Assembly: GCF_003072485.1 (NCBI RefSeq)
Contig: NZ_CP025989.1
Span: 150,001 to 182,000, forward strand
Length of the DNA: 32,000 bases
Direction: 5' to 3'
Origin: Candidatus Fokinia solitaria
Lineage (GTDB): Bacteria; Pseudomonadota; Alphaproteobacteria; Rickettsiales; Midichloriaceae
Part shown: positions 15,270-25,464 of the stretch, piece by piece
Position numbering within the stretch: the stretch's first letter is position 1
How the letters are laid out: each line of letters begins with the position of its first letter
The notes under the pieces: generated by a model
The model's input: the letters and a program-made list of their open reading frames with translations, nothing else
What the model was told of the DNA's origin: nothing
The model's database searches: none
Program-made: the position numbers and the translations under genes

Positions 15270-15380
15270 AGGAAAGTGAAACTTAATGTAAGATAAGACA
15301 ATGATTTTTACGTGTAGTGGTATTGATTATCGTACATTATGTGTTGTAACATCTCCATGTTAAGAATAAAAATATAGTTG

Positions 15381-16553
15381 ATGATGAAGAAGAGGTTATA
15401 TCTATGTATTCTATGTGTCTTTTTTCTTGGTGTCTTATATGTAGCAGAGTCTAAGGCGTCCGAGTTAAGTAGAAAGGGAGATTATTTTACCTTTATGGCT
15501 TTGACCTCTGAGATAGTGCCACAAGTGAAATTACAGCAGTATCTCGAGCGTGGAGTCGGCGCTGAAGTGACGGGCACTGATGTAAAGAGTATTACAAATG
15601 GTACTGTACTTGTGCCTGGTTTTATATTTGGAGGAGGTTACATGTTTCGTGATATTGCTTTGAGTGCTTATTTTAGCCATTCTGCGAGAAAGCTTTCTCA
15701 GAGTGCATTGCAGTTCTCAAATGAGATGAAGATAGTTGGCAATTCAGTAGGACTTTCGGTGGTAAGGTACATTTCTGATATGAAGGTGCGCCCTTTTCTT
15801 GGAGTTACAGTGGATGTTTTGAGCTTGCAGTACACTTTATCTGGCATTAGAGCGTTTGATGCAAGTGGCGCACTCGCGGATAGTGATGTAGTGCGAGTAA
15901 GTGGCGCGTTGAAGAATAGAAGTGATGTGGTGTTTTCTCCTCTTTCAACAGAGGTAGAGTATAAGACAATATGTCTTGCTGCGAATGATGAGAATTATAC
16001 TTGCGTTCAGAATGATGTGCCTTCAGTGTCGTATGCTGCACTGCCTAAAGATGTGCTGTCGTTGCTTGCTTTCAATAGCGAGTTAAAAGCCACTAATAAG
16101 ACGAAATTAGGATTTTCCTTCACGGGAGGATTGTCATTTAGAGTAGATAATATAGTAATAGAAGGATTTGCGGCAGCGAACTTGAGGTCTAAATTGACTT
16201 TTGGTAATGAAAAAGCAGTATACGTAAATCGTAGTGCGCTGAATACTGTAGTGTCCGATGGTGTGCCGTATGATGATGTAAAGAGTGTATTAAATGGTAA
16301 GTATGTGTATCTTCAACAGAATGGCGTGTGTGATATGACGGTAGTGCAAAATCAAGACTGTCAAAATAGTGGTATGATGACTGGACAGGAAGCTATAGAT
16401 AGTATAGTTGTTGACGGTAAAAAAGGAGGAGATTTAGCATCTTACGTTTATACTGATGCCACTACTTATAAGGATTTCAGAACCTATATTCCGCAGGAAA
16501 TTGAGGGTACGCCAACTTATACTTTAGGAATCAGAGTACTTCTATTGTTTTAA
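15381..16553 (+). CDS. putative outer-membrane beta-barrel / surface protein
   Basis: Signal peptide MMKKRLYLCILCVFFLGVLYVAESKA/SE. Alternating beta-strand-like segments. C-terminal aromatic signature TYTLGIRVLLLF. The ORF-track start at 15378 is TTG; the first ATG is 15381. Family not assignable by eye. Confidence 0.65.
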   Translation: MMKKRLYLCILCVFFLGVLYVAESKASELSRKGDYFTFMALTSEIVPQVKLQQYLERGVGAEVTGTDVKSITNGTVLVPGFIFGGGYMFRDIALSAYFSHSARKLSQSALQFSNEMKIVGNSVGLSVVRYISDMKVRPFLGVTVDVLSLQYTLSGIRAFDASGALADSDVVRVSGALKNRSDVVFSPLSTEVEYKTICLAANDENYTCVQNDVPSVSYAALPKDVLSLLAFNSELKATNKTKLGFSFTGGLSFRVDNIVIEGFAAANLRSKLTFGNEKAVYVNRSALNTVVSDGVPYDDVKSVLNGKYVYLQQNGVCDMTVVQNQDCQNSGMMTGQEAIDSIVVDGKKGGDLASYVYTDATTYKDFRTYIPQEIEGTPTYTLGIRVLLLF

Positions 16554-16900: not shown

Positions 16901-17803
16901 ATGAAAGTTGCTACGTATGATATACAGCTTTCTGATACTTATATGATAGAGGAGTTCGTAAACTCTTTTGCTAGGTATAATGAGCATTTTTCACCTTCGT
17001 ATCCTTATTGGAGCTATAGAGCTGTACCGATGATGTATCTTGAAGATGAAGCGATTGAAACAGCGATACGAAGGTATTTTTCGCAAAATGTACTATTTGA
17101 GGTATATTTTGAAGAGCTATATAGCGTTGCGAGGTTGATGTATGTTTTGGATGCGAGAAAAATCTGTAGTGCTGCAAATTCTTTCAAGATATCTCTTAGT
17201 TTACTGGAAGGTTTATTCAATGAAAGTATCAAGAAGAGAGATTTTTGGATGCAAATGGTAGCTTTAGAGTCGAAAATAAACGAAAGCTTTACACGACATG
17301 GAGGTACTGGTTTACCGTTTTCATCAGCTAATATGCTCAATACGATAAATGATGATATACAGAGTAATAACAAAGAGAAGGTAGTAGCAAGTGAGAAGCT
17401 ACAAAAAGAAGAAAAAAGTAAAGCAGAAGTAGGATGTGTGAACAAAGTGGAAGAGTACTTTAAGAGAATATGCGAGGAGGATGAGCTGCAGAATTTAGAA
17501 GATAAGAGGAAGAAAGGAGATGATAAAGTGGCAAAGGTAGTGCAAGAAGTGGTGAAGGTAGTGCAAGAAGTGGTGAAGGAAGAAGAGCCGGTAGTGCAAG
17601 AAGGTAAGGAGGAAGAAGAGCCGGTAGTGCCAGTAGGTAAGGAGGAAGAAGAGCCGGTAGTGCCAGTAGGTAAGGAGGAAGAAGAGCCGGTAGTGCCAGT
17701 AGGTAAGGAAAGAAGAGAAGGTAGTGCAAGAAGTGGTGAAGGAAGAGGAGAAGGTAGTGCAAGAAGTGGTGAAGGAAGAGGAGAAGGTAGTGCCAGTAGG
17801 TAA
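16901..17803 (+). CDS. acidic tandem-repeat protein, N-terminal fragment (frame 2), runs out of frame inside the repeats
   Basis: 300-aa ORF with no signal peptide. From about aa 213 it has VVQEVVK x2, then GKEEEEPVVPV x3. After about 17710 the translation degenerates to EGSARSGEGRG and stops. Confidence 0.7.
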   Translation: MKVATYDIQLSDTYMIEEFVNSFARYNEHFSPSYPYWSYRAVPMMYLEDEAIETAIRRYFSQNVLFEVYFEELYSVARLMYVLDARKICSAANSFKISLSLLEGLFNESIKKRDFWMQMVALESKINESFTRHGGTGLPFSSANMLNTINDDIQSNNKEKVVASEKLQKEEKSKAEVGCVNKVEEYFKRICEEDELQNLEDKRKKGDDKVAKVVQEVVKVVQEVVKEEEPVVQEGKEEEEPVVPVGKEEEEPVVPVGKEEEEPVVPVGKERREGSARSGEGRGEGSARSGEGRGEGSASR

Positions 17804-17816
17804 GGAGGGAGAAGAG
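17537..17816 (+). repeat. in-gene tandem repeats: 21 nt x2, 33 nt x3, then 33 nt x2.8 variant units
   Basis: gtagtgcaagaagtggtgaag at 17537 and 17558. ggtaaggaggaagaagagccggtagtgccagta at 17603, 17636 and 17669. A fourth unit at 17702 is 2 nt short (ggtaagga-aagaagag). gaaggtagtgcaagaagtggtgaaggaagagga at 17717 and 17750, with a partial unit at 17783. Confidence 0.9.
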
Positions 17817-18830
17817 AAGAGGAGAGAAAGATGGGAAGGATTAAGTGAGGAGCAGAAGAAGGAAATGGAGAAGCTGCAGATTTCAGAAGAGAGAATAAAA
17901 AATATTATAGAGATACGACAAAAAGAGATTGATATATATCAGGGAAAAGATTACGACGACAAGATGATACTCATTCGAAAAAAGCTAAGTGAGAAATCGC
18001 TTCAATATGGACTACTAGCAAATCAGATAGAACAGAAGAAGTTGCTAGGAGAGTTAGATTCTATTCTGGAAATGGAAAAACAAAAGAATGAGAGAGAGTA
18101 TGAGCAATGGGTAATAAGAGAAGAGAGAGATCATGAGAAGTTGAAACATGTACAAGAGCAGGAATTGCCAAAGTTTATAATCACTGAAAACGATAGAAGA
18201 GCAGTTATAATAAAAGAGATGAGTGAGAAATCGCTTCAAGCGAACATAATAGCGGATCAAGCGTGGCAAATGGAATTAAAAGGAGATGTAGGAGGAGCTG
18301 CTGCACTTCGAAAGCAGTATCACTCTCCTCTTAGAGATGATGCTTATAAGATCAGCATGAAATTACACGATCTATACAGTATTGCTCCGTTTGCTCCTGC
18401 TAGATTAGAAGATAAAGATGTTGTGATGAAAGGAGGTACGAGAACAGATTACAGGACTTATACCTCTCCTAATAATCCAAATGTGTTATTCACTCACAGT
18501 TCAAAGAAGTTTTATAATGCATTTAAGGACGTTATACATAAGATACACTTCTGTAAACCTATGAAAGTAGGAGACTTCAATCCTTCTATATTCGAAGGTG
18601 ATAGAAAAAAGGAAATAATGGTCGCTCCTATGTGTACTTCTCCTCATTGTTGTCCAGGAACATCAGAGTTAACTCCTAGAGAGTTTTTCGTCGCAGATGA
18701 TCATTACAACAATGCCGATGTATTTACCCTCTCTACCAATGATATGTTATACACTACATACGACGGTGTAGTTCATCACAATGGCGGCATCGATTCCTCC
18801 ATACTTCATACAGATAGCGTTATATCTTAG
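17703..18830 (+). CDS. acidic tandem-repeat protein, C-terminal fragment (frame 0)
   Basis: Frame 0 opens at 17703, right after a TAG. It immediately continues the same peptide repeat (EEKVVQEVVKEEEKVVQEVVKEEEKVVPVGKE). A coiled-coil-like E/K-rich region and a Cys/His-containing C-terminal domain follow. There is no ATG until about aa 47 of the ORF-track product (its 'M' is GTG 17724), so it is most simply the continuation of 16901..17710. Confidence 0.7.
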   Translation, partial: VRKEEKVVQEVVKEEEKVVQEVVKEEEKVVPVGKEGEEKRRERWEGLSEEQKKEMEKLQISEERIKNIIEIRQKEIDIYQGKDYDDKMILIRKKLSEKSLQYGLLANQIEQKKLLGELDSILEMEKQKNEREYEQWVIREERDHEKLKHVQEQELPKFIITENDRRAVIIKEMSEKSLQANIIADQAWQMELKGDVGGAAALRKQYHSPLRDDAYKISMKLHDLYSIAPFAPARLEDKDVVMKGGTRTDYRTYTSPNNPNVLFTHSSKKFYNAFKDVIHKIHFCKPMKVGDFNPSIFEGDRKKEIMVAPMCTSPHCCPGTSELTPREFFVADDHYNNADVFTLSTNDMLYTTYDGVVHHNGGIDSSILHTDSVIS

Positions 18831-20277: not shown

Positions 20278-20394
20278 TTATATTAAGCTGTTGATCTTAA
20301 CAGGCTCTTGCTGTAAGTTTTGAAATTATAAGTGCAGTGTGTGACGAGAGTTACATACTCATGCGGTAAATCAAATTTAAATTTGCGTAAGATA

Positions 20395-21576
20395 ATGAAG
20401 AAATTCGAACGTACCAAGCCACACGTAAACATCGGAACAATAGGCCATGTTGATCATGGTAAAACAACTCTTACTGCTGCTATTACAAAGTATTTCAGTG
20501 AGTCATTTGTTGCATACGATAAGATAGACAAAGCGCCAGAAGAAAGACAGCGTGGTATTACAATCAATACTGCGCACGTGGAGTATGAAACGAAGAATAG
20601 GCACTATGCGCACGTTGATTGCCCTGGACACGCGGACTACGTGAAAAATATGATTACTGGTGCTGCGCAGATGGATGGTGCGATACTTGTAGTAGCAGCA
20701 ACTGACGGTCCTATGCCTCAAACTAGAGAGCACATACTACTTGCGCGCCAGGTTGGTGTACCGTCAATAGTGGTATTTATGAATAAGATGGACCAAGTAA
20801 CGGATCCAGAACTTGCAATGCTTGTTGAAGAGGAAATAAGAGATTTACTTACGAAATATGGCTTTCCTGGAAAAGATATACCAATTATAAAAGGATCGGC
20901 TTTGAAAGCTTTGGAAGCTGCTTCATCTGATGCTTCAACTGGCGATGGTGCATGCATAGGGGAGCTTCTTGCAGCGGTAGATTCGTATATTCCTACTCCT
21001 CAAAGAGAACTCGATCTACCTTTCTTAATGCCTGTTGAAGATGTGTTTTCGATTTCGGGTCGTGGTACCGTTGTAACGGGACGTATTGAGAGAGGTATCG
21101 TGAAAGTTGGCGCAGAAGTTGAGATTGTAGGCTTCGGATATAGACACAAGACTGTTTGTACTGGTGTGGAGATGTTTAAGAAGATGCTTGATCAAGGACA
21201 AGCTGGAGATAATGTCGGTCTTTTATTGCGCGGCATAGCAAAAGAGGATGTGGAAAGAGGATGTGTTGTTGCAGCGCTGAACACGATAAATCCTCATACT
21301 AATTTTGAAGCGCAGTTGTATGCGCTAAGTAAAGAGGAAGGTGGACGTCATACAGCGTTTTTGAATGGCTATAGACCACAATTTTTCGTGAGAACTACCG
21401 ACGTTACTGGTACTATTCAACTTCCTGAAGGAACTGAGATGGTGATGCCAGGTGACAATGTAACGATTAATGTAGAGCTGATAGCGCCTATTGCGATGGA
21501 TGAAGGACAAAGATTTGCAATTCGCGAAGGTGGTAGAACAGTAGGTGCAGGAGTAGTATCTAAGATTATCAAATAG
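20395..21576 (+). CDS. tuf: elongation factor Tu
   Basis: 393 aa starting [26 protein letters not shown]. Motifs DCPGHADY and NKMD. The ORF-track 5-prime extension (20332) adds 21 non-conserved residues. Confidence 0.97.
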
Positions 21577-21582
21577 CTTTAT

Positions 21583-21906
21583 ATGACTCATGTAGTAACT
21601 GATAAATGTATAAGATGTAAGTATACGGATTGTGTAGAAGTATGCCCTGTTGAATGTTTTCATGAAGCGAAGAACATGCTTGTGATAAATCCTGATGAGT
21701 GCATTGATTGCGGCGTATGTGTAGCTGAATGTCCTATAGGAGCTATTCAATCTGAAATAGATGCTGAGCCTATATGGCTGGAGATAAACTCAAAATATGC
21801 TAAGAAGTTTCCTCGCATTCTCGAGAAGAAGATGCCTATGGCGGAAGCAGAGGTTTATAAGGACGTTGTAAATAAGGAAAAGTTTCTTAACGAAAATGAT
21901 GAGTAA
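21583..21906 (+). CDS. fdxA: 7Fe ferredoxin (3Fe-4S + 4Fe-4S), FdxA type
   Basis: 107 aa. [27 protein letters not shown] and [14 protein letters not shown]. Its last ~100 nt are homologous to the tail of the downstream 278-bp repeat unit. Confidence 0.93.
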
Positions 21907-22708
21907 CTTTGTAAAGATCGTTTAGATAGATTCGCAAAGATTGCTTAGATAAATGATAAGTGATTTTTACAAGGACTTCTTGAGAAAATGACTGTGTTTC
22001 TGCGAGTTTCTCGAGAAGCCGAAAGAAATTTCTGTAATAGCTTTTCCATGTGTTTATAGAGCTTCTACAATAGAGGCGCTTTATCTGTTTATAGAAAGGA
22101 TGTTACTGATGAATCGATGGTGCTGCTTTTCTCATGATGCGGTGATTTGATTACTGCGAAGTTCTTAGTGAAGATGATGAGTAACTTTGTAAAGATCGTT
22201 TAGATAGATTCGTAAAGATTGCTTGGATAAATGATAAGTGATTTTTACAAGGACTTCTTGAGCAAATGACTATGTTTCTGCGAGTTTCTCGAGAAGCCGA
22301 AAGAAACTTCTGTAATAGCTTTTCTATGTGTTTATAGAGCTTCTGTAATAGAGGCGTCCTATCTGTTTATAGAAGAGATGTTACCGATGAATCGATGGTG
22401 CTGCTTTCTTCATGATGCGGTGATTTGATTACTGCGAAGTTCTTAGTGAAAATGATGAGTAACTTCATAAAGATCGTTTAGATAGATTCGCAAAGATTGC
22501 TTAGATAAATGATAAGTGATTTTTACAAGGACTTCTTGAGAAAATGACTGTGTTTCGAGTTTCTTGGAAAAGTTACAGAAACTTCTGTAATAGCGCTTTT
22601 CTATGTGTTTATAGAGCTTTCTGTAATAGAGGTATCTTATCTGTTTATAAAAGAGATGTTACTGATGAATCGATGGTGCTGCTTTCTTCATGATGCGGTG
22701 ATGTTTGA
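21896..22708. repeat. 278-bp tandem repeat, about 2.9 copies, non-coding
   Basis: The unit start 'atgatgagtaac' recurs at 21896, 22174 and 22452, an exact 278-nt spacing. Copies 1 and 2 differ by roughly 15-20 substitutions by eye. Copy 3 has small indels and ends near 22703-22708. No ORF of 60 aa or more in any frame. Confidence 0.95.
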
Positions 22709-23022
22709 AATGGTATCTATATCTTCACAATACTGTTATTTCAAGATGTAAAGTTCAAGTTCAGACTATGTAAGAAAAACGTAGTAGATATGTTATATAT
22801 CAGTCTTATTACAGCAAAACGATGCTATATCGCAGAGCTAAGGCTATTGTTACTACTATTATGTCGCTTCTTACGATAAATATATTTGCGCGAAAACGAT
22901 AAGTAGTAAATATTGCTATCTCATTATCATCCCTTGCTTAGTTTCAAGAGATGTGCGTATATCTTTTTCTTCTATGATAAAAAAGTTATTCAAAGCTTCT
23001 GAAATTTTTCCGACTTATGAAA

Positions 23023-23060
23023 GCGACTCTGATGCGGAGTCGTACTCTTCTTTTTATTTT
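23023..23060 (+). terminator. orphan terminator-like hairpin plus T-rich tail
   Basis: gcgactc (23023-23029), loop tgatgcg, gagtcgt (23037-23043, 7 bp including one G-U), followed by actcttctttttatttt. No intact gene lies upstream, so it could be the ancestral tuf-fdxA terminator. Confidence 0.3.
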
Positions 23061-23473
23061 GAATAAATATATTTAATTATTTTTGAAGATATTAATGCTA
23101 TTTCATAATTTCGTTAGATGCTTATACATTACTTTTCTGATGATTGATGCTTTTTATCCTATGCTTTTTGCATGATTGGAAAATCTTTACAGTACCTTCA
23201 ATGCTATCATAAAGTGTGATGAGTAATAACACACTCTCTTTATGAATATATGGTAAATCATTTCTGCTATTTTATAGATTTCCAGCGTATTGTCACTGTA
23301 GTTTCTTCATCATTTGAAGATTACTTTATATGTCTTATAGTATGAAAAATGACAATATGTAATGAAAAATTTGTGAATATAAAAGAGTATAAGAAAGTAT
23401 AAGAGAATATAAGACAGTTTAAGCTGAACGAGAGCTAAGATTATGTAGAGCTTTAGGCAAAATCTTACATCGC

Positions 23474-23950
23474 ATGAAGACGTAATTGTTAGAGATTTAT
23501 TTATTGTTTACTCAAATTTGAGAAGATATTCGCTTCATAAGATATCATCTAACTTCAAATAGAAGTCCTTTTTAAGTTAAGGACAATTTTTGATACTTCA
23601 CTATGCGCTTCGAAAAAGAATATAGAACAAAACACTTTTTTGAACTTACTCAATGCATAGATAAAGCATATTAAAATGCATTTTTAATACTTGTATAAAA
23701 TATATCAGTGATAAAATTACGAATGTAAGAAAAGGATTTTTCTAGATATTTCTGCGCTTTTTATATATTTTTGCGTGAAGGATAGCGAGAAGCGCTATAG
23801 TTTCTACTCTTCAAAGAAGGGTATGCCACTTTTTTGATATCTGTTGAGGATGTATCTTCGATTTCGCATCGAGAGAAACGTTATCAAAGCTGAAGTAGAA
23901 GTTGAGATTTAAAGATATTCTTCAAAACAAGACATAACCATCACTAAGCT
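23474..23950 (+). pseudogene. tuf: eroded partial copy of tuf (relic), truncated at tRNA-Thr
   Basis: Colinear nucleotide matches to intact tuf, with many stops and deletions. 23840 tctgttgaggatgtatcttcgatttcgca matches 21031 cctgttgaagatgtgttttcgatttcggg. 23869 atcgagaga...aaagctgaagtagaagttgagattt matches 21085 attgagaga...aaagttggcgcagaagttgagattg. 23795 ttctactcttcaaagaagg matches 20990 tcctactcctcaaagagaa. 23711 gataaaattacgaatgtaag matches 20841 gatttacttacgaaatatgg. 23474 atgaaga/cgtaa matches the tuf start atgaaga...cgtaa. About 790 nt of tuf is compressed to about 480 nt. Confidence 0.65.
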
Positions 23951-23956
23951 TCTATT

Positions 23957-24031
23957 TGGTGCCGTTAGTGAGAATCGAACTCACGACCTCTTCATTACCA
24001 ATGAAGTGCACTACCACTGTGCTATAACGGC
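23957..24031 (-). tRNA. tRNA-Thr (anticodon GGT), CCA encoded
   Basis: Hand-folded cloverleaf. Acceptor GCCGTTA/TAACGGC, D stem GCAC/GTGC, anticodon stem CTTCA/TGAAG with loop TTGGTAA, T arm GTGAG-TTCGATT-CTCAC, then A-CCA. 75 nt. Its 5-prime end lies 5 nt after the atpD stop. Confidence 0.93.
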
Positions 24032-24036
24032 TACTA

Positions 24037-25464
<1,428 letters not shown>

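Follow-up and report, generated by a model that had tools for sequence, protein, structure and literature searches.

'Candidatus Fokinia solitaria' is a Paramecium endosymbiont of the Midichloriaceae with a genome of 837,348 bp (PMC5905368). The window analyzed here, a stretch of 32 kb taken as a whole, is tightly packed, with spacers that are mostly < 200 nt and a second largest one of 348 nt. The largest is a non-coding gap of 2,050 nt between fdxA and a tRNA-Thr gene, at which the tuf-fdxA pair meets the convergent tRNA-Thr and atpD genes. The following genes and features were located:

20395..21576, + strand: tuf (EF-Tu), leading the tuf-fdxA pair, 97.7% amino acid identity to F. crypta EF-Tu
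21583..21906, + strand: fdxA, 107-aa 7Fe-type ferredoxin (ORF list), 82% identity to F. crypta FdxA
21884..22702, + strand: 278-nt tandem array (Tandem Repeats Finder, repeat search and alignment)
22703..23799, no strand: rest of the spacer, A+T-rich (GC 25-33%), non-coding, no ORF > 50 aa
23023..23060, + strand: first canonical intrinsic-terminator-like site after fdxA, 9-bp G+C-rich stem and T-run (dG -13.4 kcal/mol, z -2.4)
23378..23423, no strand: 10-nt microsatellite TATAAGAGAG, 4.6 copies (Tandem Repeats Finder)
23800..23911, + strand: pseudo-tuf scrap, 112 nt, homologous to tuf 20989-21128 (EF-Tu residues ~210-245; blastn and nhmmer)
23957..24031, - strand: tRNA-Thr(GGU), right edge of the 2,050-nt spacer (Rfam/tRNA match)
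24037-25449, - strand: atpD, next to tRNA-Thr (ORF list)

For tuf, the listed ORF begins with a GTG at 20332, and the likely start is the ATG at 20395 (MKKFERTK).

The locus was compared with that of the sister species F. crypta, where fdxA lies 72 nt from tRNA-Thr in fully syntenic surroundings. The two genomes are colinear over ~20 kb, and the coordinate offset between them jumps, by 1,975 nt, solely at the fdxA/tRNA-Thr junction. No array is present at the F. crypta locus. Among the loci compared, the tuf-fdxA-atpD arrangement was common to F. crypta alone, so there is no outgroup by which insertion could be told from deletion. Exact-protein look-ups with FdxA and AtpD gave no record for other isolates, and the collections searched held no second F. 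solitaria sequence, the only close FdxA being that of F. crypta. When genome contigs were searched with FdxA, the matches listed comprised generic alphaproteobacterial ferredoxins (best 64% identity) and no Fokinia. An invariant 22-mer of the unit gave 0 matches in metagenomes.

The original prediction, which named Tandem Repeats Finder as a check, had described three units at an exact 278-nt period. That program found one tandem array at 21884-22702 (period 278, 2.9 copies, 91% matches, score 1371), the sole large one within the window, and the period is borne out by GATGAGTAA at 21898, 22176 and 22454. The array has the following parts:

21884-22161, 22162-22439 and 22440-~22702, + strand: array units 1, 2 and 3 (alignment)
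21902..21977, + strand: predicted long imperfect hairpin from the fdxA stop, ~22 pairs, A-U/G-U rich, without a T-run (dG -18.7 kcal/mol, z -2.4)
22008..22057, + strand: candidate inverted copy of fdxA 21783-21827, seeded on TTCTCGAGAA; in unit 2 at 22286-22335 (reverse-complement alignment)
22027..22095, + strand: nested ~35-nt tandem duplication, 2 copies (CTTCTGTAATAG...TGTTTATAGA); also at 22305-22373 and 22582-22652
22162..22184, + strand: dead fdxA tail at the head of unit 2, last 23 nt with stop, 3 mismatches
22440..22462, + strand: dead fdxA tail at the head of unit 3, last 23 nt with stop, 2 mismatches

The array starts with the last 23 nt of fdxA (21884-21906), its only overlap with a coding sequence; the rest is non-coding. 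The units do open with the end of the gene and its stop, as had been predicted: units 2 and 3 begin TTCTTAGTGAA(G/A)ATGATGAGTAA, copying those 23 nt. Because the left breakpoint lies within the last 8 codons of fdxA, copy 1 leaves the gene intact and the later copies are dead tails with a stop. Two smaller motifs of the prediction were also recovered. The palindrome TTCTCGAGAA occurs in units 1 and 2 (22008 and 22286), as well as inside fdxA (21818), and is absent from the rest of the 32 kb. The GTTTATAGA sub-repeat pair is present in every unit at a measured spacing of 35 nt, its motifs being part of the nested ~35-nt tandem duplication. A short imperfect direct repeat, as read from the sequence, flanks the array (GACGTTGTAAAT at 21862, GATGTTTGAAAT at 22700). 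The G+C content of the array is 35-37%, against 25-33% in the remaining spacer, and its GC skew is positive and coding-like. Pairwise identities between the units are 92.8, 90.4 and 92.3%, which amounts to 7-10% divergence, with 19-25 substitutions between units in addition to indels. Unit 3 is the most decayed of the three and carries 3 small indels in the alignment.

The prediction had also claimed that ~100 nt of fdxA were re-copied in expanded form, the gene end being in effect a 'unit 0'. This did not hold up: in a formal direct-orientation alignment, the test that the prediction itself had put forward, the similarity was at background level. Units 1 and 2 were aligned by Smith-Waterman with the part of fdxA that precedes the shared 23 nt under four scoring schemes, with 1,324 real segments of the window as background. 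In three of the schemes, 0.44-0.72 of the background segments scored at least as high; in the strictest, the fraction was 0.065-0.08. Comparison with dinucleotide shuffles gave p = 0.04-0.7, and the translated comparison gave p = 0.04-0.9. Neither nhmmer nor blastn found a + strand match of the unit body to fdxA, and tblastn of FdxA against the window saw only the terminal LSENDE in the array. In reverse complement, units 1 and 2 matched fdxA above all 1,324 background segments in two schemes and within the top 0.2-1.6% in the other two. For this match, nhmmer gave E = 0.049 over the whole window, and the palindrome-anchored flanks gave p = 0.006 and 0.089. After removal of the nested 35-nt duplication, the match was reduced to a ~45-50-nt core of lower rank; the GC skew of the segment is opposite in sign to that expected of an inverted copy, and the segment is lost in unit 3. 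The weak match points to a possible, unproven inverted scrap of the fdxA 3' region in the unit.

Beyond the array, no homologue was detectable for 22703..23799, and its longest stop-free stretch (74 aa) had no matches. The pseudo-tuf scrap lies 45 nt from tRNA-Thr and carries a 26-nt deletion and a stop, its translation reading FLISVEDVSSISHR / RIERNVIKAEVEVEI*. It was found by blastn (70.8% over 89 nt, E 3e-7) and nhmmer (E 7.8e-7 and 2.8e-7). By diagnostic sites (6 vs 5), the scrap is about as distant from the F. solitaria tuf gene as from that of F. crypta, and thus bears no sign of recent conversion. A tblastn match of the ORF at 16901-17803 to 23190-23429 on the - strand (95 aa, 27%, E 0.002 in a tiny database) was rejected as not significant given ~2,700 queries. 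That the spacer marks an origin or terminus of replication was likewise rejected, as the GC skew is positive throughout the window and follows gene orientation.

The age of the array was judged against fourfold-degenerate sites. Identity between F. solitaria and F. crypta is only 45-49% at these sites, as opposed to 90-93% between the units, indicating that the array arose well after the species split, though not recently. With copies that have drifted 7-10% apart and a third unit that has acquired indels, the array has the character of a decaying fossil, and no sign of current activity was seen. We therefore think it probable that the array is a decaying, non-coding fossil of slippage or illegitimate recombination, lying in a spacer that collects local duplication products. 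Bacterial tandem segmental duplications arise by slipped-strand mispairing or illegitimate recombination at short direct repeats, and are usually unstable and soon lost. The array resembles such duplications in its integer-like copy number, its breakpoint in a gene end with the first copy intact, its nested duplications at several scales, and the short direct repeat at both ends. Unlike most of them, it has persisted long enough for 7-10% divergence.

As the data comprise 32 kb of genome and one relative, we infer both the mechanism and the neutrality of the array. A 278-nt segment whose left breakpoint lies 23 nt inside fdxA would have been triplicated head to tail through replication slippage or illegitimate/unequal recombination between short similar sequences. 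The 35-nt duplication would be older than the 278-nt unit that encloses it. The copies would then have drifted apart, unit 3 gaining its indels. The array is probably a passive part of a long 3' UTR in a tuf-fdxA transcript that would be read through to the terminator-like hairpin at 23023-23060. Several points speak against such a fossil. Its + strand folding (z -2.5) and the stop hairpin (z -2.4) leave a structural RNA role possible, and its G+C content and GC skew could reflect constraint or a coding origin. Under strong deletion bias, the survival of 2 kb of non-coding DNA in a genome that is among the smallest of the Rickettsiales is also unexpected.

Truncated pieces of nearby genes reportedly accompany the tandem repeats of Ehrlichia ruminantium, an observation attributed to Collins et al. 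2005. Non-coding tandem repeats in E. ruminantium genomes undergo expansion and contraction (PMC10710844; PMC7343930), and the original prediction had seen the same process here. The likeness stands as to the kind, a large intergenic tandem duplication that overlaps a gene end; it fails as to the organism, which is a Fokinia of the Midichloriaceae and not an Ehrlichia. As in the E. ruminantium repeats (Collins et al. 2005; Frutos et al. 2006; via PMC10710844, PMC7343930), the units are arranged head to tail with a period of hundreds of bases, in a long intergenic region of an obligately intracellular bacterium of the Rickettsiales. Gene fragments lie alongside the F. solitaria array too (two dead fdxA tails and the 112-nt tuf scrap). 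E. ruminantium belongs to the Anaplasmataceae, whereas F. solitaria is a member of the Midichloriaceae with a very compact genome. An active repeat of the E. ruminantium type would be expected to have near-identical copies and to occur in many arrays over a genome of low coding fraction; the units of F. solitaria are 7-10% diverged, and its 32 kb contain a single array. E. ruminantium also has a partial inverted duplicate of ntrX beside its parent, which is long, well conserved and engaged in gene conversion with the parent (PMC9937504). The scraps of F. solitaria are similar in that a partial copy lies near an intact parent (the tuf scrap and the possible inverted fdxA scrap) and is presumably non-expressed, like the ntrX duplicate (PMC9937504). 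They differ from it in being ~50-112 nt long and ~65-71% identical, and the tuf scrap shows no sign of recent conversion.

An active repeat of the E. ruminantium type, which would vary in copy number and re-copy the gene end with ~100 nt of fdxA as 'unit 0', is in our judgement unlikely. The large-period intergenic repeat that overlaps a gene end and the truncated gene scraps close by would fit such activity, and a single spacer with duplications nested at three scales suggests that the site is prone to slippage. The divergence of the units and the indels of unit 3 argue against recent homogenization, and point to an old, decaying array rather than an actively variable copy number. Moreover, in direct orientation the unit resembles the final ~100 nt of fdxA no more than background does, the organism belongs to a different family, the 32 kb contain only one large array and the F. 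crypta locus none, and such repeats are unmentioned in the genome paper (PMC5905368).

A further, unlikely reading is that the convergent junction of the highly expressed tuf-fdxA pair with tRNA-Thr/atpD is a persistent, scrap-fed hotspot of template switching or slippage, or else that the hairpin triplet has taken on a role in the 3' UTR of the operon. The products named for this hotspot are the tuf scrap, the fdxA tails, the nested 35-nt and 278-nt duplications, and the decamer array.

It was also considered whether the array is a functional cis-acting RNA, in which a triplicated hairpin module in the tuf-fdxA 3' UTR would serve in transcript stabilization, in termination or attenuation, or as insulation from the convergent tRNA-Thr/atpD genes. 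The predicted stop-codon hairpin (z -2.4) recurs in units 2 and 3, and folding of the unit relative to shuffles is strand-specific, with z -2.5 on the + strand and z +0.3 on the - strand. No canonical + strand terminator lies between fdxA and 23023, whereas F. crypta has a terminator-like site 40 nt past fdxA; the G+C content above that of the surrounding spacer would also suit an RNA element. Against this, consensus folding of the three units revealed compensatory changes at 0/80 predicted pairs, and unit 3 disrupts several of the pairs; in its copy of the stop-codon hairpin, two pairs are broken. Rfam gave only tRNAs at the gathering score and, when 21550-24050 was searched with E up to 1, only tRNA-Thr. 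Since the array is also wholly absent from F. crypta and the z-scores are modest for a G/U-rich sequence, we regard an RNA element as distinctly improbable.

The coding-like G+C content and GC skew, the weak match to the 3' region of fdxA in reverse complement and a repeat-rich protein gene 4 kb upstream (detected by Tandem Repeats Finder) would be consistent with the remnant of a former gene, either a decayed repeat-protein gene or a second fdxA placed tail to tail. The period is not a multiple of 3 (278 = 3 × 92 + 2) and, as the prediction had noted, no frame is open: every unit has stops in all six frames, and the longest ORF is 49 aa. Pfam returned nothing on six-frame translations of the entire spacer. 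A phmmer search with the 57-aa unit ORF region against 1.84 billion representatives gave two matches (E ~3e-4), which were dismissed as periodic-on-periodic artefacts of a 12-aa CNHGFL repeat protein against the nested 35-nt sub-repeat. With tblastn of FdxA detecting just the terminal residues in the array, and an inverted match that is only ~45-50 nt without the nested duplication and wrong in the sign of its GC skew, a gene remnant is very improbable. Although tandem repeats that exceed the Illumina read length are classic sites of misassembly, inflation of a single copy to three is barely credible, as the 19-25 substitutions and the indels between copies are beyond an assembler's invention and the assembly is a hybrid of PacBio and Illumina reads (PMC5905368). 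Two further candidates were rejected: a CRISPR array, because the entire 278-nt unit is repeated and unique spacers are absent, and a dispersed repeat or mobile element (REP, MITE or IS remnant), which had no further copy in the window and no plasmid or phage similarity.

Annotators should take neither the fdxA-like tails nor the EF-Tu-like scrap for genes. The array appears analogous to a known kind, the large non-coding tandem repeats of E. ruminantium, and by itself opens no new biological question. If its copy number varies, it may serve as a VNTR-like strain-typing marker for Fokinia. Were the junction a hotspot, spacer growth like that of E. ruminantium would occur even in a genome that ranks among the most reduced of the Rickettsiales. 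If the array is a decaying fossil, a streamlined 837-kb endosymbiont genome keeps a 2-kb pocket of junk DNA made from pieces of the neighbouring genes, which would be a small natural record of how non-coding DNA is created by slippage or illegitimate recombination and then slowly purged.

The 278-nt tandem repeat overlapping the 3' end of the ferredoxin gene fdxA is real. Tandem Repeats Finder revealed a single large array in the window (21884-22702; period 278, 2.9 copies, 91% matches, 1% indels, score 1371), the same three copies were recovered by a second, separate repeat search, and MAFFT alignment of the three units agreed, with a mean column identity of 93%. Over aligned bases, identity was 92.8% between units 1 and 2, 90.4% between units 1 and 3, and 92.3% between units 2 and 3. 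The greatest changes are in unit 3: a deletion of 3 nt, insertions of 2 nt and 1 nt, and scrambling of the block that reads TTCTCGAGAAGCCGAAAG in units 1 and 2. The predicted distance of 278 nt between unit starts was borne out by GATGAGTAA, which occurs at 21898, 22176 and 22454 at a spacing of exactly 278 nt. As predicted, the units also begin with the last codons and stop of fdxA: the ORF spans 21583-21906, the array starts 23 nt before the end of the stop codon, and a copy of these 23 nt heads units 2 and 3 with three and two mismatches, respectively. The palindrome TTCTCGAGAA, expected in units 1 and 2, was confirmed there and is otherwise present only in fdxA within 32 kb. Two copies of GTTTATAGA were found per unit, as proposed, spaced 35 nt apart; they form part of a nested ~35-nt tandem duplication, the copies of which are ~75-80% identical. 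The array was correctly described as lacking an open frame, since stops close all six frames, and its period is not divisible by three. An assembly artefact was rejected, as the copies are distinct from one another and the assembly had long-read support; the 837,348-bp chromosome was sequenced with PacBio Sequel and Illumina and assembled with Unicycler (PMC5905368). The genome paper uses "repeat" for an ankyrin-repeat protein only (PMC5905368).

The original prediction also regarded the unit tail as derived from the last ~100 nt of fdxA, copied in direct orientation but diverged and expanded, making the gene end a "unit 0". This did not withstand formal alignment. On the plus strand, neither nhmmer with a three-unit profile nor permissive blastn matched any part of fdxA lying 5' of the shared 23 nt. 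The unit body was compared with fdxA 21700-21883 in direct orientation by Smith-Waterman alignment, using 1,324 real 184-nt segments from the same window as background and four scoring schemes. Scores were ordinary (p = 0.04-0.7 against dinucleotide shuffles, depending on the scoring); 44-70% of the background segments scored equally well under three schemes and ~7-8% under the strictest. Translation of the unit body in the three plus-strand frames gave p = 0.04-0.9 against fdxA, and the 11-mer TTCTCGAGAAG is the sole solid element common to both.

Unexpectedly, the reverse complement outscored the direct orientation. Units 1 and 2 beat all background segments under two scoring schemes and fell in the top 0.2-1.6% under two further schemes; the nhmmer match had E = 0.049 across the whole window. 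With the palindrome used as an unscored anchor, the flanks gave p = 0.006 and 0.089. Both 35-nt repeats of the nested duplication lie within the colinear match, and removal of either leaves a core of ~45-50 nt (reverse complement of fdxA 21783-21827 versus 22008-22057), the rank of which varies with the scoring scheme. Unit 3 gave no such signal in the background-segment comparison, and for an inverted copy, GC skew in the segment should be of the opposite sign. The signal is fragile, and an inverted fdxA scrap within units 1 and 2 is possible.

The window is from Candidatus Fokinia solitaria, a member of the Midichloriaceae endosymbiotic in Paramecium, and not from Ehrlichia; its G+C content is 36.6%. 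In a protein search, the closest named relative of its FdxA was the ferredoxin FdxA of Candidatus Fokinia crypta (82% identity; others ≤69%). Gene order is common to the window and the F. crypta locus (L081, CP110343) over ~20 kb: Na+/H+ antiporter, tuf, fdxA, tRNA-Thr(GGU) on the opposite strand, atpD, ompH, ybeY, rne, and onward. The only large length difference in this synteny is the gap between fdxA and tRNA-Thr, which measures 2,050 nt in the window (21907-23956) versus 72 nt in F. crypta (L081 10328-10399); the array accounts for 796 nt of it, and the second-longest spacer in the window has 348 nt. By tblastx, the coordinate offset between the two loci (window minus L081) changes abruptly, by 1,975 nt, at this junction alone; elsewhere it shifts by tens of bases, with drift of as much as ~135 nt confined to a variable repeat-protein gene region at 16.7-18.9 kb. 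As the tuf-fdxA-atpD arrangement was found in none of the 80 other loci compared, the difference could be either a gain here or a loss in F. crypta.

The region at 16901-18830 (plus strand; L081 5094-7081) is E/K-rich and looks like a fast-evolving repeat protein. Here, a 33-nt coding repeat (17577-17819, 7.4 copies) runs across two ORFs, of 300 and 368 aa, that overlap in different frames, and a frameshift may lie inside the repeat of the window copy; in the orthologous region of F. crypta (461 + 201 aa) the repeats are of 102/117 nt and quite unlike these. The 348-nt "spacer" separating ORF 15378-16553 from ORF 16901-17803 probably holds a small conserved gene below the 100-aa ORF cut-off, since 16576-16750 matches a 55-aa F. 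crypta gene (L081 4750-4917).

Beyond the array, the fdxA/tRNA-Thr spacer contains the following features:

23378-23423: decamer microsatellite, 4.6 copies of TATAAGAGAG, in the A+T-rich part of the spacer (Tandem Repeats Finder)
23800-23911, plus strand: pseudo-tuf scrap, 112 nt, 45 nt from tRNA-Thr and 2.2 kb downstream of intact tuf

The microsatellite represents a third scale of slippage at the spacer. The scrap matches tuf on the same strand (blastn, 70.8% over 89 nt, E 3e-7; nhmmer, E 7.8e-7 and 2.8e-7), and its translation, FLISVEDVSSISHR and RIERNVIKAEVEVEI*, is equivalent to EF-Tu residues ~210-245; 26 nt are deleted and a stop is present. At sites where the tuf genes of the two species differ, it agrees with F. 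solitaria at six and F. crypta at five, indicating that it is old and that no recent conversion has maintained its similarity. The remainder, 22703-23799, has a G+C content of 25-33%. It gave no match in Rfam, in Pfam on six-frame translations, or against plasmid and phage DNA; it showed no similarity to window DNA and nothing beyond chance against the ORFs of the window and all fetched loci, and a protein homologue search with its longest stop-free stretch was empty.

Tandem segmental duplication via slippage or illegitimate recombination is the simplest account of the array. The left breakpoint lies within the last eight codons of fdxA, so that the first copy keeps the gene and later copies bear dead tails. 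Similar 12-mers were read directly at the array ends (GACGTTGTAAAT at 21862 and GATGTTTGAAAT at 22700; 838 nt apart, ~3 × 278), which fits recombination between short direct repeats. The 15 nt immediately left of the Tandem Repeats Finder boundary align poorly with the unit junctions, and the exact breakpoints are therefore uncertain.

Between the two Fokinia species, identity at the fourfold-degenerate sites of tuf and atpD is only 45-49%, near saturation. With units 90-93% identical, the array must therefore be a late arrival in the F. solitaria lineage; our crude saturation-corrected estimate places its origin in about the most recent tenth of the period after the species split. The units are 7-10% diverged and carry indels, which argues against current homogenisation or turnover. 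Judged by identity, the nested 35-nt duplication (~75-80%) and the tuf scrap (~71%) are older than the array, and the spacer thus preserves traces of several duplications that differed in date and scale.

There is no indication of function for the array. Folding of the unit (z = -2.5 on the plus strand, +0.3 on the minus strand) and of a long A-U/G-U hairpin from the fdxA stop (z = -2.4) gave mild signals; none of the 80 predicted pairs showed compensatory change across the three units, and several were broken. No Rfam family was found for the array, and remote protein matches of the longest unit ORF region were dismissed as periodic-sequence artefacts. As the first canonical terminator-like site 3' of fdxA on the plus strand lies at 23023-23060, the tuf-fdxA transcript would extend through the array as a long 3' tail. 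The F. crypta gap carries a canonical, bidirectional-looking terminator hairpin (GAGGAGG...CCTCTC and a T7 run). In the window, further downstream, a palindromic hairpin at 23565-23584 (both strands; GTCCTTTTTAAGTTAAGGAC, z -2.4), flanked by T-runs on either strand, could be a bidirectional terminator of the convergent transcription units. A sub-threshold Rfam match to the Plastid-ycf2 5'UTR (23959-24031, plus strand, antisense to tRNA-Thr; 35.7 bits versus a gathering score of 65.7) is almost certainly spurious, produced by tRNA-like structure. An origin or terminus at the spacer was rejected, as GC skew is positive window-wide and tracks gene orientation.

The Fokinia locus resembles in kind the large non-coding tandem repeats of Ehrlichia ruminantium, the nearest phenomenon described. 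The original comparison with Ehrlichia stands as an analogy only, the organism being another. Near-identical, actively turning-over copies are one defining feature of the E. ruminantium repeats, alongside strain variation and genome-wide abundance; the Fokinia copies, 7-10% diverged, lack the first of these. The locus is also similar in kind to E. ruminantium ntrX, where a partial inverted duplicate adjoins the parent gene (PMC9937504). Judged by copy divergence in one isolate, we do not place the array in the "actively variable" repeat class, and we classify it as a tandem duplication of fossil character, accompanied by gene scraps, in a further lineage of the Rickettsiales. As such, it neatly illustrates how junk DNA forms in a tiny genome and might serve as a typing marker.
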